This document shows positions 17,229 to 20,000 of a stretch of 20,000 nt of DNA, piece after piece (positions within the stretch are counted from its first letter, which is position 1; every line of letters starts with the position of its first letter). The stretch lies in the IMG/VR virus record IMGVR_UViG_3300042507_002727; one strand, 5' to 3'. Made by a program: the position numbers and the translations under genes. The notes beneath the pieces are model-generated. The model made no database searches. It was not told the DNA's origin and worked only from the letters and a program-made list of their open reading frames with translations. Origin of the DNA: an uncultured virus (IMG/VR IMGVR_UViG_3300042507_002727). Lineage: Duplodnaviria > Heunggongvirae > Uroviricota > Caudoviricetes.

Positions 17229-18656
17229 ATGTCATTCGTTAATGCAGTTCAGAAATCCAAGAACAAAGCAGTCGCTCGTACCGCGAATGGTATGAAGGCT
17301 CGTGCTACTTCACAGTCGCCAGTTCTGGATCTATTCGGTCTTATCGGTTCCGCTCGTGGTACTGATATCACCAAGCAATTCACCGCTTCTCTCGTAGAGA
17401 ATGCCGATCTTACTCTGCGTATGCTGCAGTGGGCTCGTGACATTCGTGAGGGCGCAGGCGAACGTGCTACCTTCCGTAATCTACTCTCTGCGCTAGAGGC
17501 TACCGACCCAACTCTTGCCGGAAAGCTGATGCACAAAATCCCAGCACTTGGTCGTTGGGATGACCTCTTTGCCTACAAGAACCCGATCAACCGCAATCAG
17601 GCTTTCGCTCTGATTGCAGAGGCTCTTGAAGCAAAGAATGGTCTGGCAGCAAAGTGGATGCCACGTAAAGGTCCGGTCGCAGTCGAACTGACTCGATACC
17701 TCGGTCTGTCTCCTAAGGCATACCGTAAGCTCATTGTCGGTTTGACCAATGTCGTTGAGACTCAGATGTGTGCTAAGGAATGGGAAGCTATCAACTTCTC
17801 GCACGTTCCTTCTGTCGCGTCTGCTCGTTATCAGAAAGCTTTCGGTCGTAATGCAAAAGAGTCCTACTCTGCTTACATTGCGGAACTGAAGAAGCCTGTT
17901 GCTGAGCGTTCAGATCCTAAAGTCAAGATCAACGCTTCTGCGGTTTATCCGTATGATGTTGTGAAGTCTGTCGTGAAGGGTAATGCGGCTGTTGCTGATG
18001 AACAGTGGAAGGCTATGCCTAACTACATCGGCGATGCAAAGGTTCTGCCTATGGTCGACGTCTCCGGCTCGATGGGTTCGCTGTGGTACACCTACAGCCA
18101 ACTGCAGCCAATCGACATTGCTGTTTCTCTTGGCCTTTATTGCGCTAGCAAGAACACCGGAGACTTCAAGGATCTGTTCCTGACCTTCTCTGGTAAGCCT
18201 AAGATGGAACACCTGAAAGGTACTCTGTCTCAGAAGATGACTCAGATGACAAAAGCTCACTGGGAAATGAACACCAACCTGCACGCAGCATTCGATGAGA
18301 TCCTCAAGATCGCTGTTAAGGGCAATGTGTCTCAGGAAGATATGCCTGACATGCTGCTCATCCTTTCGGACATGCAGTTCGATGCTTGCACTCGCTACGA
18401 TGACTCTGCAATGCAGATGATCAAGCGTAAGTACAAGGAAGCAGGCTACGATGTTCCAAAGATCGTCTTTTGGAACCTGTCCATGTACGGTAAGGAAAAC
18501 GGTAACACTCCAGTTAAGTTCGACAAGAACGGTACTGCGCATGTTTCTGGTTTCTCTCCTTCCATCATGAAGCATGTTCTCGCAAACGACCTCGAGGAGT
18601 TTACTCCATACAATGTTATGTTGAAGACTCTGATGAGCGATCGTTATGCCTACTAA
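17229..18656 (+). CDS. TROVE/Ro60-like RNA-binding protein with vWA domain (DUF2828-type)
   Basis: RDIREGAGER, GRWDDL, LAAKWMPR, VPSVA helical region; MIDAS DVSGSM, T, LILSDMQFD, IVFWNL, SGFSP; strongly biased codon usage. Confidence 0.85.
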   Translation: MSFVNAVQKSKNKAVARTANGMKARATSQSPVLDLFGLIGSARGTDITKQFTASLVENADLTLRMLQWARDIREGAGERATFRNLLSALEATDPTLAGKLMHKIPALGRWDDLFAYKNPINRNQAFALIAEALEAKNGLAAKWMPRKGPVAVELTRYLGLSPKAYRKLIVGLTNVVETQMCAKEWEAINFSHVPSVASARYQKAFGRNAKESYSAYIAELKKPVAERSDPKVKINASAVYPYDVVKSVVKGNAAVADEQWKAMPNYIGDAKVLPMVDVSGSMGSLWYTYSQLQPIDIAVSLGLYCASKNTGDFKDLFLTFSGKPKMEHLKGTLSQKMTQMTKAHWEMNTNLHAAFDEILKIAVKGNVSQEDMPDMLLILSDMQFDACTRYDDSAMQMIKRKYKEAGYDVPKIVFWNLSMYGKENGNTPVKFDKNGTAHVSGFSPSIMKHVLANDLEEFTPYNVMLKTLMSDRYAY

Positions 18657-18659
18657 TCG

Positions 18660-18679
18660 GTTAGGCCTTCGGGCCTAAC
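18660..18679 (+). terminator. cUUCGg tetraloop hairpin after the TROVE gene (weak terminator or processing/stability hairpin)
   Basis: GTTAGGCC-TTCG-GGCCTAAC with only a poor U tract. Confidence 0.6.
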
Positions 18680-18690
18680 TTCCTCAATTT

Positions 18691-18791
18691 GGATCGTTGC
18701 AGCAAAAAATTAGCTAGTGCAACGGTAGCACACTTTCCTTCTAAGAAAGAGTTCCGGGTTCGATTCCTGGGCAAAATAAAAAGCGATCCTG
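18691..18791 (+). ncRNA. tRNA-mimic / Y-RNA-like element 3 (anticodon UCU)
   Basis: Closing stem GGATCG/CGATCC, TTGCAGCA, D arm GTGC-AACGGTA-GCAC, arm CTTTC-CTTCTAA-GAAAG, T arm CCGGG-TTCGATT-CCTGG; only 2 bp of acceptor stem, no CCA. Confidence 0.75.
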
Positions 18792-18822
18792 TAAAATAAT
18801 TTGAAATAACTCAACTTTTTTG

Positions 18823-18852
18823 TTGACATTCGTAGAATACAATGTATAAATA
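18823..18852 (+). promoter_or_regulatory. overlapping sigma70-type and late promoter for the tRNA cluster leader
   Basis: TTGACA-16 nt-TATAAA; the -10 lies within TATAAATA (18845-18852). Confidence 0.7.
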
Positions 18853-18883
18853 TATCTAACAGAACTAAAGGAACTCGCACTAA

Positions 18884-18970
18884 ATGATTCGCCAACCGCA
18901 ACCTCAAATGAATAATAAGCGCCAGGTATTTACCTGCGAATATATTCGTATGTGCGAGGGTTCTATATAA
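18884..18970 (+). CDS. putative attenuator leader peptide, 28 aa (MIRQPQPQMNNKRQVFTCEYIRMCEGSI)
   Basis: AAAGGA RBS; lies between the promoter and the terminator preceding the tRNAs. Confidence 0.6.
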   Translation: MIRQPQPQMNNKRQVFTCEYIRMCEGSI

Positions 18971-18998
18971 GGATATTAAATATCATACCTTATCAAAG

Positions 18999-19031
18999 AA
19001 CCCTCCAGATGAAAGTCTAGGAGGGTTTTTT
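18999..19031 (+). terminator. intrinsic terminator immediately upstream of tRNA-Cys (attenuator 3:4 hairpin)
   Basis: AACCCTCC-AGAT-GAAA-GTCT-A-GGAGGGTT followed by a T run. Confidence 0.8.
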
Positions 19032-19036
19032 AATAT

Positions 19037-19118
19037 GGTGTGTGGCCCGGATGGTAAGGGGATGGATTGCAAATCCATAGCACGAAAGTAGTCAGTTCGA
19101 TTCTGACACACACCTCCA
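19037..19118 (+). tRNA. tRNA-Cys(GCA)
   Basis: Acceptor GGTGTGT/ACACACC, U73-CCA, arm ATGGA-TTGCAAA-TCCAT, T arm GTCAG-TTCGATT-CTGAC; 12-nt variable region. Confidence 0.9.
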
Positions 19119-19124
19119 GAATAC

Positions 19125-19196
19125 GGTGACACGTTGCGGTAACGACTTGGGTCTCATAAGCCCGAAGAGATGGTTCGAGTCCATCTGGCACCACCA
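19125..19196 (+). tRNA. tRNA with CAU anticodon (Met or Ile2), atypical D arm
   Basis: Loop CTCATAA, T arm GATGG-TTCGAGT-CCATC, ACCA end; one A/G mismatch in the acceptor stem. Confidence 0.8.
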
Positions 19197-19208
19197 AGAA
19201 AAAAGTTG

Positions 19209-19237
19209 TTGACATTCATCTAGAATCAGTTTAGATA
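19209..19237 (+). promoter_or_regulatory. early sigma70-type promoter with GAATCAG spacer motif
   Basis: TTGACA-ttcatctagaatcagtt(17)-TAGATA. Confidence 0.7.
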
Positions 19238-19334
19238 TGAGTTGACGGCGGAAGAAAGACAAAATCAATCTTCCAGTTCTTTGAAAATTTAAACTTTGTC
19301 CTAGCGTAAGCGATGATGGACTGGAAACAGATTT

Positions 19335-19440
19335 ACTCTGTTTTCAACTAGGGTTCGCGGTTCGATTCCGTGCTGGGCTTCGCGGGCCCGGGTTGCTGCA
19401 GCAGATAGTCATGGATGACGACCCTAGTTGAAAACAGAGT
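19335..19440 (+). ncRNA. circularly permuted tRNA-like RNA (YrlA-like topology)
   Basis: Perfect 20-bp terminal stem enclosing a T arm (CGCGG-TTCGATT-CCGTG), a GC-rich hairpin and a D-like arm (TA-GTCA-TGGA-TGAC). Confidence 0.65.
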
Positions 19441-19442
19441 TT

Positions 19443-19517
19443 TGGGAAGTAGTTCAGCGGCAGAATAACTGACTTTGAATCAGCAGGCCGGTGGTTCGAA
19501 TCCACCCTTCCCAACCA
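19443..19517 (+). tRNA. tRNA-Gln(UUG)
   Basis: Acceptor TGGGAAG/CTTCCCA, loop CTTTGAA, GGTTCGAATCC, CCA. Confidence 0.93.
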
Positions 19518-19525
19518 ATAATCAT

Positions 19526-19603
19526 CTGGGTGTAGCTCAGTCTGCGTAGAGTGCTTGCCTTGGAAGCAAGAAGTCGCTGGTTCGAATCCAGTCATCCAGA
19601 CCA
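19526..19603 (+). tRNA. tRNA-Pro(UGG)
   Basis: Acceptor CTGGGTG/CATCCAG, arm CTTGC-CTTGGAA-GCAAG, GGTTCGAATCC, ACCA. Confidence 0.93.
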
Positions 19604-19613
19604 AAAATACCTG

Positions 19614-19642
19614 TTGACATTCATTTAGAATCAGTATATTCT
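19614..19642 (+). promoter_or_regulatory. early sigma70-type promoter with GAATCAG spacer motif
   Basis: TTGACA-ttcatttagaatcagta(17)-TATTCT. Confidence 0.75.
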
Positions 19643-19665
19643 GATAATACGAAAAGGAAAAAGAA

Positions 19666-19815
19666 ATGAAACGAAAACATAAGGACCTACCGAAGGCACG
19701 AAACCCATTCGTCCTTCATCTTTCCAAACGTCTTTCGGGCGCACACGGAAAGACTAAAAAAGCGGAACGCCGTAGTGATAAGATGGCGTTGAAGCAGGAA
19801 TGGACGGTTAGCTGA
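19666..19815 (+). CDS. 49-aa basic protein (MKRKHKDLPKARNPFVLHLSKRLSGAHGKTKKAERRSDKMALKQEWTVS), possible ribosome-rescue-factor-like
   Basis: Own promoter, AAGGA RBS; stop codon lies inside tRNA-Lys. Confidence 0.65.
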   Translation: MKRKHKDLPKARNPFVLHLSKRLSGAHGKTKKAERRSDKMALKQEWTVS

Positions 19816-19878
19816 GTTGGTTTAGCGGCGGGCTTTTAATCCGCGTCAACCAGGGTTCGAATCCCTGACCGTTCACCA
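19802..19878 (+). tRNA. tRNA-Lys(UUU)
   Basis: Acceptor GGACGGT/ACCGTTC, arm GCGGG-CTTTTAA-TCCGC, T arm CAGGG-TTCGAAT-CCCTG, ACCA. Confidence 0.93.
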
Positions 19879-19888
19879 TTACTTTGAT

Positions 19889-19980
19889 GATGCACCGAGG
19901 GCGATTGGTACCAGCCCTTTCCTTGGTGGAAGCCTGCCGTTGAGGTGGGTGGGAGAGTTTCGATACCTCCACGGTGTATC
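19889..19980 (+). ncRNA. tRNA-like cloverleaf RNA without a canonical anticodon loop or CCA
   Basis: 9-bp closing stem GATGCACCG/CGGTGTATC with four internal hairpins, the last containing TTCGAT. Confidence 0.5.
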
Positions 19981-20000
19981 TTCTAAGTAATAGGAGTAAA

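Follow-up and report, generated by a model that had tools for sequence, protein, structure and literature searches.

Why would a phage place a strong intrinsic terminator directly upstream of a tRNA gene that has no promoter of its own? This question is raised by a short module within the 20,000-nucleotide stretch of DNA analysed here (the window), which is part of the record of an uncultured virus (218 kb, 41.9% GC) and which a search of sequencing runs found in lake-water metagenome DNA runs. A first-pass annotation, made from the letters of the window, had seen in the module a leader-peptide attenuator that gates the phage's tRNA cluster. We followed up this proposal computationally, and we put the probability that the module is a ribosome-dependent transcription attenuator heading the phage's cluster of tRNAs and small RNAs at roughly 0.55, a reading that comes from sequence comparison and modelled RNA folding.

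Architecture of the locus

The features described here lie on the + strand. Around the module, their order is a gene for a DUF2828/DUF7788 protein, tRNA-Arg, the module itself, tRNA-Cys, tRNA-CAU and a second promoter. The module opens with P1, a sigma-70-type promoter (18823..18851) in which TTGACA (18823-18828) and a TATAAAT-type -10 element (18845-18851) flank a spacer of 16-17 nt. An SD motif, AAGGAA (18868-18873), leads a 28-codon ORF (MIRQPQPQMNNKRQVFTCEYIRMCEGSI; ORF call at 18884-18970), which is followed by an intrinsic terminator (18995..19031) composed of a hairpin (18995-19025) and a tract of six U residues (19026-19031). The 5' arm of this hairpin holds what we call segment 3 (AGAACCCUC, 18997-19005); the 3' arm is segment 4. 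Five nucleotides past the terminator begins tRNA-Cys (GCA), an 82-nt gene with a long extra arm (19037..19118), and after it comes a 72-nt tRNA-CAU, either Met or Ile2 (19125..19196), which was called by ARAGORN and scores 28.8 against a gathering threshold of 29 with the Rfam tRNA model. A second, ordinary tRNA-CAU is present further along (L190, 1085-1161). The promoter, ORF, terminator and tRNA-Cys were all found where the first-pass annotation had put them.

The terminator hairpin is predicted to be very stable (-20.9 kcal/mol, z -5.6), and none of 200 shuffled sequences folded as well; for the leader RNA as a whole the predicted energy is -52.8 kcal/mol (z -5.5), again matched by none of 200 shuffles. 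A consensus terminator scan did not list the 18995-19031 hairpin, and we assume that its loop and stem layout lies outside the rules of the scan. An independent promoter for tRNA-Cys was looked for in the window, and the interval between the terminator and the gene contains no promoter-like site. A promoterless tRNA-Cys behind a strong terminator depends on read-through; judged from the sequence, the functional case for regulation is built mainly on this apparent need. What the module could gate is confined to the stretch between its terminator and the next promoter, in the window tRNA-Cys and tRNA-CAU; the claim that it gates the phage tRNA cluster goes too far, as the rest of the cluster has its own promoters at 19209 and 19614. 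Contigs from four metatranscriptome runs cover the tRNAs and one promoter flank; none spans 18866-19036, and they are uninformative either way.

The promoters at 19209 and 19614 resemble P1. Their common form, TTGACAttc..tagaatcag..TATA, recurs across the tRNA cluster, in the window at 18823, 19209 and 19614 and in L190 at 2195, 3557 and 7234 (minus strand); over the next 10 kb the pattern is matched five times, where 0.34 matches would be expected. Behind the second promoter stand a structured tRNA-like RNA, tRNA-Gln and tRNA-Pro. The structured RNA (19240-19442; -71.6 kcal/mol, z -4.3) consists of a 21-bp terminal stem around a T-arm-like hairpin (GGTTCGATTCC) and other small hairpins, matches no Rfam family, and is kept in relatives, usually just 3' of the module (at about 290-445 in L005 and from about 1610 in L023). 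We take it to recall the bacterial YrlA-type Y RNAs, which are partners of Ro60, and a Ro/TROVE-like gene lies nearby. This is the DUF2828/DUF7788 gene (17229-18656), whose 475-residue product belongs to PHROG 850, labelled 'RNA-binding protein' in PHROGs. Proteins of this kind are common in large phages, with 711 matching phage records, all below 60% identity; the closest cultured relatives of the Ro-like protein reach at most 47%.

The third promoter precedes a basic 49-codon ORF (19666-19815) that runs into tRNA-Lys, an arrangement seen likewise in L005 from position 1171. In the window and in one relative, the stop codon of this ORF lies inside the D-arm of the tRNA, such that the message would be stop-less once the tRNA was excised. 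An ArfA-like identity for the ORF was considered and dropped, as no family matched. Downstream of tRNA-Lys, the interval 19879-19990 has conserved flanks (tttgatgat...tgtatcttctaagtaat) shared with L005 and L007, complementary ends, and no called ORF or tRNA; it may be another small structured RNA. A more distant relative (L012, 1631-2096) carries, near its Ro-like gene, a gene resembling tmRNA and also a tRNA that has the anticodon CTA and is called as tRNA-Pyl by ARAGORN.

The module in related phages

Variants of the module were gathered from IMG/VR and from metagenome contigs by four search routes: the Ro-like protein served as an anchor; BLAST was run inside the records of the loci so found; a pattern described the upper terminator stem; and a second pattern described the conserved tRNA-like RNA downstream, an anchor that leaves the tested pairings unconstrained. 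After removal of duplicates, 33 distinct variants were available from related phage contigs. All are uncultured and mutually related, and by eye they make up roughly nine lineages. The metagenome scan matched 77 stretches: 32 carried the module according to an nhmmer profile, 42 were unrelated AT-rich sequence, and three were true loci with no module in reach, one of which has only 129 nt of upstream sequence. A blastn search of public phage genomes gave no match to 18660-19220, and with this result and the low identities of the Ro-like protein there was no cultured relative to rely on. In most relatives the neighbouring gene encodes a Dps-like protein rather than a Ro-like one. The Dps-like gene was tried as an anchor and abandoned; among the 53 of 55 loci inspected, only the query's own record carries the module. 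The module is also single: nhmmer found no second copy in the 218-kb genome, and none was seen by eye in the following 2.1 kb of the tRNA cluster.

How well are the parts kept? A TTGACA-type -35 and a TATAAAT-type -10 element precede the modules of most relatives, lineage G005 being without them. A conserved leader ORF was sought and found: in every one of the 33 variants an ATG opens a reading frame of 19-38 codons, and 32 of them have an SD-like motif. The terminator is clearly supported; 97.5% of its cells across the 33 variants are paired, six of its 12 pairs change on both sides, and none of 500 shuffles reaches this level. It was also the only structure that RNAalifold returned for 21 of the 33 full-length variants; a hairpin predicted within the ORF of the window (18908..18949, in the minimum-free-energy structures) is absent from this family consensus. 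G005 has a different terminator. The distance from the stop codon to the terminator is 23-30 nt in every variant, so that a terminating ribosome would free segment 3 and not cover it.

Downstream of the terminator, tRNA-Cys(GCA) begins 5-25 nt past the stem in 24 of the 33 variants. By eye, these genes fall into length classes of 76, 78 and 82 nt with differing opening sequences; the link to Cys has thus outlasted turnover of the tRNA gene itself. One variant, G001, has an odd CAU tRNA directly after the terminator (by eye), and in variants with no adjacent tRNA, a tRNA-Cys and/or the 72-nt tRNA-CAU often stands a few hundred bases on, past the next promoter. Some lineages have the module with no tRNA attached to it: in eight of the 33 variants, a promoter-like hexamer lies directly (within 26 nt) after the terminator. 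This last arrangement is what one would expect of a self-contained small gene or RNA unit with an ordinary leaky terminator, the tRNAs being supplied by constitutive leak-through. We consider such a unit unlikely. A tRNA-Cys that is conserved, promoterless and placed 5-25 nt behind a terminator of -20 kcal/mol would need more than incidental leak.

The same explanation is favoured by fragments of the peptide that, by eye, are shared between clades, such as F-x-[CG]-E-Y-I-R and Y-R-F-[IT]-M-R. Against this, the peptide has no match in Pfam, PHROGs or NCBIfam and is weakly constrained: the periodicity of substitutions is slight (47, 43 and 54 variable sites at the three positions of the codon), with pN/pS mostly between 0.35 and 0.9. 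Such a picture is expected if it is more important that the leader is translated than which peptide results. Within the family the ORF does look translated. In 14 representatives, shuffled leader ORFs remain open in only 8-28% of trials, and both other frames are closed in 12. ATG triplets within the ORFs are concentrated in frame (29, compared with 8 and 2 in the other frames), a 3.4-fold excess over nucleotide shuffles (8.6 ± 2.9), of which none in 4000 reached 29.

These features also bear on a different sort of switch, in which a protein (e.g., the Ro/TROVE-like neighbour) or an RNA such as a tRNA would bind the leader, the ORF being incidental. The surroundings lend this idea some appeal: the module adjoins the 'RNA-binding protein' gene in the window, its leader RNA is highly structured, and, of the 35 true loci in the metagenome scan, 32 have it upstream of the conserved tRNA-like RNA. 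Yet an incidental ORF would not account for the conservation of the ORF, of its SD motif and of the position of its stop codon in the antiterminator described below, or for an enrichment of ATG that is specific to the reading frame. The neighbour in most relatives is Dps-like, and an Rfam search of 18000-20000 at E values up to 1 returned only tRNA matches and three sub-threshold chance (miRNA) hits, with no leader family and no T-box. We regard a factor-dependent switch as improbable.

Alternative pairings of the leader RNA

The 5' arm of the terminator has a second potential partner. Segment 2 (GUGCGAGGGUUCU, 18952..18964), formed by the final codons of the ORF, can pair with segment 3, and in predicted folds a small hairpin at the stop codon (ATAAGG/CCTTAT, 18967..18993) sits inside this 2:3 helix. 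The resulting antiterminator hairpin (18953-19008) comprises the end of the ORF, the stop-codon hairpin (and hence the stop codon) and the 5' arm of the terminator. When the alternative structures were folded, the antiterminator came to -20.7 kcal/mol (z -5.4), essentially the energy of the terminator. The individual pairings that the first-pass annotation had named (CTCGCAC/GTGCGAG, GAGGGTTCT/AGAACCCTC and ATAAGG/CCTTAT) do exist. Its further statement that the helices are mutually exclusive stands for 2:3 and 3:4 but not for 1:2 and 2:3, which share only three nucleotides (GAG), such that a shortened 1:2 helix can coexist with 2:3.

We examined the 2:3 pairing variant by variant. In a search that extended from 35 nt before the ATG up to the terminator, the 5' arm of the terminator found its best partner in the last part of the ORF in all 13 of the variants first collected, the site ending 3-10 nt ahead of the stop codon. 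This site beat 95% of 300 dinucleotide shuffles in nine of the 13, the numbers of shuffles as good being 0, 14, 5, 6, 153, 2, 34, 21, 2, 8, 0, 25 and 12; the value of 153 belongs to G005, whose pairing is at chance level. Between lineages, segments 2 and 3 change in match, from GAGGGTTCT/AGAACCCTC to GAGGGTTT/AAACCCTC and AGGGTTTG/CAAACCCT, with GAGGGC/GCCCTC and GAGGGG/CCCCTC as further lineage-specific pairs. At pair 32:81 of alignment A1, seven sequences have C:G and six have U:A, while segment 4 stays U there. Furthermore, one large subfamily keeps the GAGGG core although its ORF reads these letters in a different frame (AUG AGG GGG vs. GAG GGU), which suggests that the RNA, and not the peptide, is what is constrained.

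Formal testing of this co-variation gave a divided result. Column by column on a MAFFT alignment, 66.9% of 2:3 cells are paired, a value that 317 of 500 shuffles matched, and the covariation score is ordinary (reached by 201 of 500). However, the GGG:CCC core of the helix is invariant and its register moves by a column or two from one subfamily to the next, and for these reasons the support for 2:3 rests on register-free tests, in which the duplex energy of segment 2 with its own segment 3 was compared with the energies obtained with the segments 3 of other lineages. These tests were devised after the data had been seen and replaced the column-wise test. The cognate duplex beat the mean of the non-cognate duplexes in 32 of 33 variants, G005 being the exception. 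Permutation of partners gave p=0.002 with 14 lineage representatives and p=0.012 with ten representatives that included G005. A control segment of the ORF, used as the negative control, gave p=0.50; the terminator, as the positive control, was equalled in none of 20,000 permutations. Compensatory change in relatives, which had been named as a check on the proposal, is thus seen in the register-free test, whereas the column-wise test does not rise above the shuffles. The family has a conserved 2:3 pairing that excludes the terminator, as an attenuator would, with the qualification that G005 lacks it and that the MAFFT column-wise test was negative.

In a self-contained unit with a leaky terminator, this complementarity could serve transcript stability or the translation of the ORF itself, or it could be a by-product of two SD-like sequences of the GGAGG type. 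The negative column-wise result is on the side of that explanation, as is G005, which keeps the ORF but not the pairing. So too is the behaviour of the full-length RNA, which at equilibrium always prefers the terminator (P 0.88-1.00). On the other hand, the 2:3 helix can exist only briefly, while transcription is under way, and its co-variation with the arm of its own terminator (p=0.002) is hard to explain otherwise.

As the terminator wins at equilibrium, regulation of any kind must be kinetic, which is also the way in which classical attenuators work. We therefore modelled the nascent RNA, that is, the transcript up to the terminator loop, before the 3' arm has been made. Transcription start sites and ribosome footprints were assumed in these calculations, the footprint size being taken from general knowledge; a terminating ribosome was represented by blocking positions -15 to +14 around the stop codon. 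With no ribosome present, the predicted probability of 2:3 was 0.63-0.86 in 11 of 13 variants, and the same 11, whose nascent minimum-free-energy structures contain 2:3, are also predicted to form the enclosed hairpin. In the remaining two, G005 and G002, nascent 2:3 is predicted only when the 5' region is blocked, as by a modelled ribosome at the start codon. With a ribosome at the stop codon, the probability fell to at most 0.01 in all 13. At the assumed footprint size, a terminating ribosome would mask segment 2 but not segment 3.

The third helix of the trp/his scheme fared less well. Segment 1 (18861..18880) consists of two blocks, AGAACU (18861-66) and CUCGCAC (18874-80), that flank the SD motif; it pairs with 18952-18964 both when the transcript is folded up to 18966, where 13 pairs form in two blocks, and when it is folded at full length. 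With segment 3 added, a shortened 1:2 helix is predicted to persist beside 2:3. In individual variants, the 1:2 duplex is no better than in shuffles (23 to 251 of 300 as good), the cognate-partner signal is weak (p=0.026), and the predicted occupancy in nascent RNA is 0-0.26. Where a best site was found, it mostly overlaps the spacer between SD and AUG together with the start codon, and an initiating ribosome and 1:2 would accordingly exclude each other. Of the 1:2 / 2:3 / 3:4 logic that had been proposed, 2:3 and 3:4 are retained; 1:2 is at most a putative anti-antiterminator in the family. If 1:2 is left out, the default in the absence of a ribosome is read-through, unlike in the trp model.

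Proposed mechanism and relation to known attenuators

How might these parts work together? What the analysis shows directly is which parts are present, that they are conserved and that segment 2 co-varies with segment 3; from this we infer a role for the ribosome and, with it, a direction of the response and any codon specificity. RNA polymerase would start at P1 and transcribe the short leader ORF. Segment 2 and the stop-codon hairpin could then pair with segment 3 in an antiterminator as stable as the terminator. A ribosome that promptly reached the stop codon would cover segment 2, the terminator would form, and transcription would end near 19031. With no ribosome on the leader, or with one that came late or had stalled at a more upstream position, the antiterminator would form first, allowing read-through into tRNA-Cys and tRNA-CAU. 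Slow translation of the leader would thus yield more of both tRNAs.

What would such a leader sense? The first-pass annotation had described the peptide as rich in amino acids of the downstream tRNAs. The counts are as given for the window (Gln x4, Pro x2, Met x3, Cys x2, Lys x1), but across the family Gln, Pro and Lys are not enriched, Cys codons are about as common as base composition would lead one to expect, and only Met stands out. Relative to the phage proteome (0.81% Cys, 2.24% Met), 14 representative peptides contain 4.9 times as much Cys and 3.2 times as much internal Met, Gln (1.5x), Pro (1.2x) and Lys (0.9x) being ordinary; relative to nucleotide shuffles, Met is the only codon class that is clearly enriched, and its in-frame codons are scattered. 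Sensing through Cys codons was considered and dropped, as their total (16) is close to that of shuffled leader nucleotides (13.3; P=0.25) and TGY triplets have no frame preference (16/14/8). At least one Cys is present in 13 of the 14 representative peptides, against 8.8 expected (P=0.015, uncorrected for shared ancestry). Runs of regulatory codons are absent from all of the leader peptides, and codons for a sensed amino acid are not clustered. The final AUA codon, to which attention had been drawn, is present in the window but is the last sense codon in only two of the 14 representatives; moreover, a ribosome on it would cover segment 2 and so favour termination rather than read-through. The sensed signal may be a particular codon or translation in general.

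That the module acts as a translation-stress sensor for tRNA supply, as the first-pass annotation had it, is plausible. A more specific version, which we consider unlikely, is a self-correcting supply loop: slow decoding would open the terminator and the phage would produce its own tRNA-Cys and tRNA-CAU as they were needed, the in-frame Met codons and the single, near-universal Cys serving as the sensing positions. In such a loop, the attenuation of a tRNA gene would be controlled by translation itself. The trigger could be, for example, loss of host tRNA during infection or cleavage by anticodon-nuclease defences. Both host tRNA loss in infection and tRNA-cleaving defences are subjects of current work. 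If the attenuator reading is true, phage tRNA genes would be more than a constitutive supplement to codon usage, their supply following the state of the host's translation apparatus.

Attenuation need not be the only output of the module. A strong promoter and an efficient terminator would give an abundant, stable RNA of about 175 nt, and this terminated leader RNA, or the peptide, might act in trans, attenuation being secondary or additional. Such an activity would be compatible with the attenuator reading and has a reported precedent in the RNA (rnTrpL) and peptide (peTrpL) of the rhizobial trp attenuator (PMC6614838, PMC7298713). We think it improbable here: no target was identified, and the genome contains nothing else similar to this single-copy module.

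Leader-peptide attenuation is a textbook means of controlling genes for amino-acid biosynthesis. With the trp, his, leu, thr, pheA and ilv attenuators of E. coli and Salmonella, the module shares a promoter and a short, SD-led leader ORF upstream of the genes thought to be regulated; an intrinsic terminator between the two, opposed by an antiterminator; downstream genes that need read-through; and a stop codon so positioned that a terminating ribosome masks segment 2. It differs from them in having no runs of regulatory codons and in its 1:2 helix, which is weak and overlaps the SD motif and AUG instead of lying in the ORF, such that the predicted default in the absence of a ribosome is read-through and not super-attenuation. 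It is also carried by a phage, has tRNA genes and not biosynthetic enzymes as its output, and matches no Rfam leader family.

Other leaders offer closer parallels in some respects. Stall-sensing leaders of inducible resistance genes that act by transcription attenuation, such as mef(E)/mel (PMC4335068), likewise have a short ORF with no codon runs, on which slowing of the ribosome is believed to release an antiterminator; they sense drug-bound ribosomes through specific nascent peptides. The phage leader, by comparison, has no evident arrest motif, its peptide is weakly constrained, and its output is tRNA. The cysteine-responsive polycysteine short ORFs of mycobacteria, which are leaderless and have consecutive Cys codons, resemble the module in that a short upstream ORF is proposed to report Cys decoding to what lies downstream (bioRxiv 10.1101/834739). 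In the phage, by contrast, 13 of 14 representatives have one or two scattered Cys codons, in a total that base composition predicts. The literature searched, represented by excerpts, gave no account of leader-peptide attenuation before tRNA genes or in phage tRNA clusters. Thus, the mechanism proposed here, ribosome-mediated attenuation, is a known one, and what is probably new is its setting in a phage, its tRNA output, the absence of codon runs and the weak 1:2 helix.
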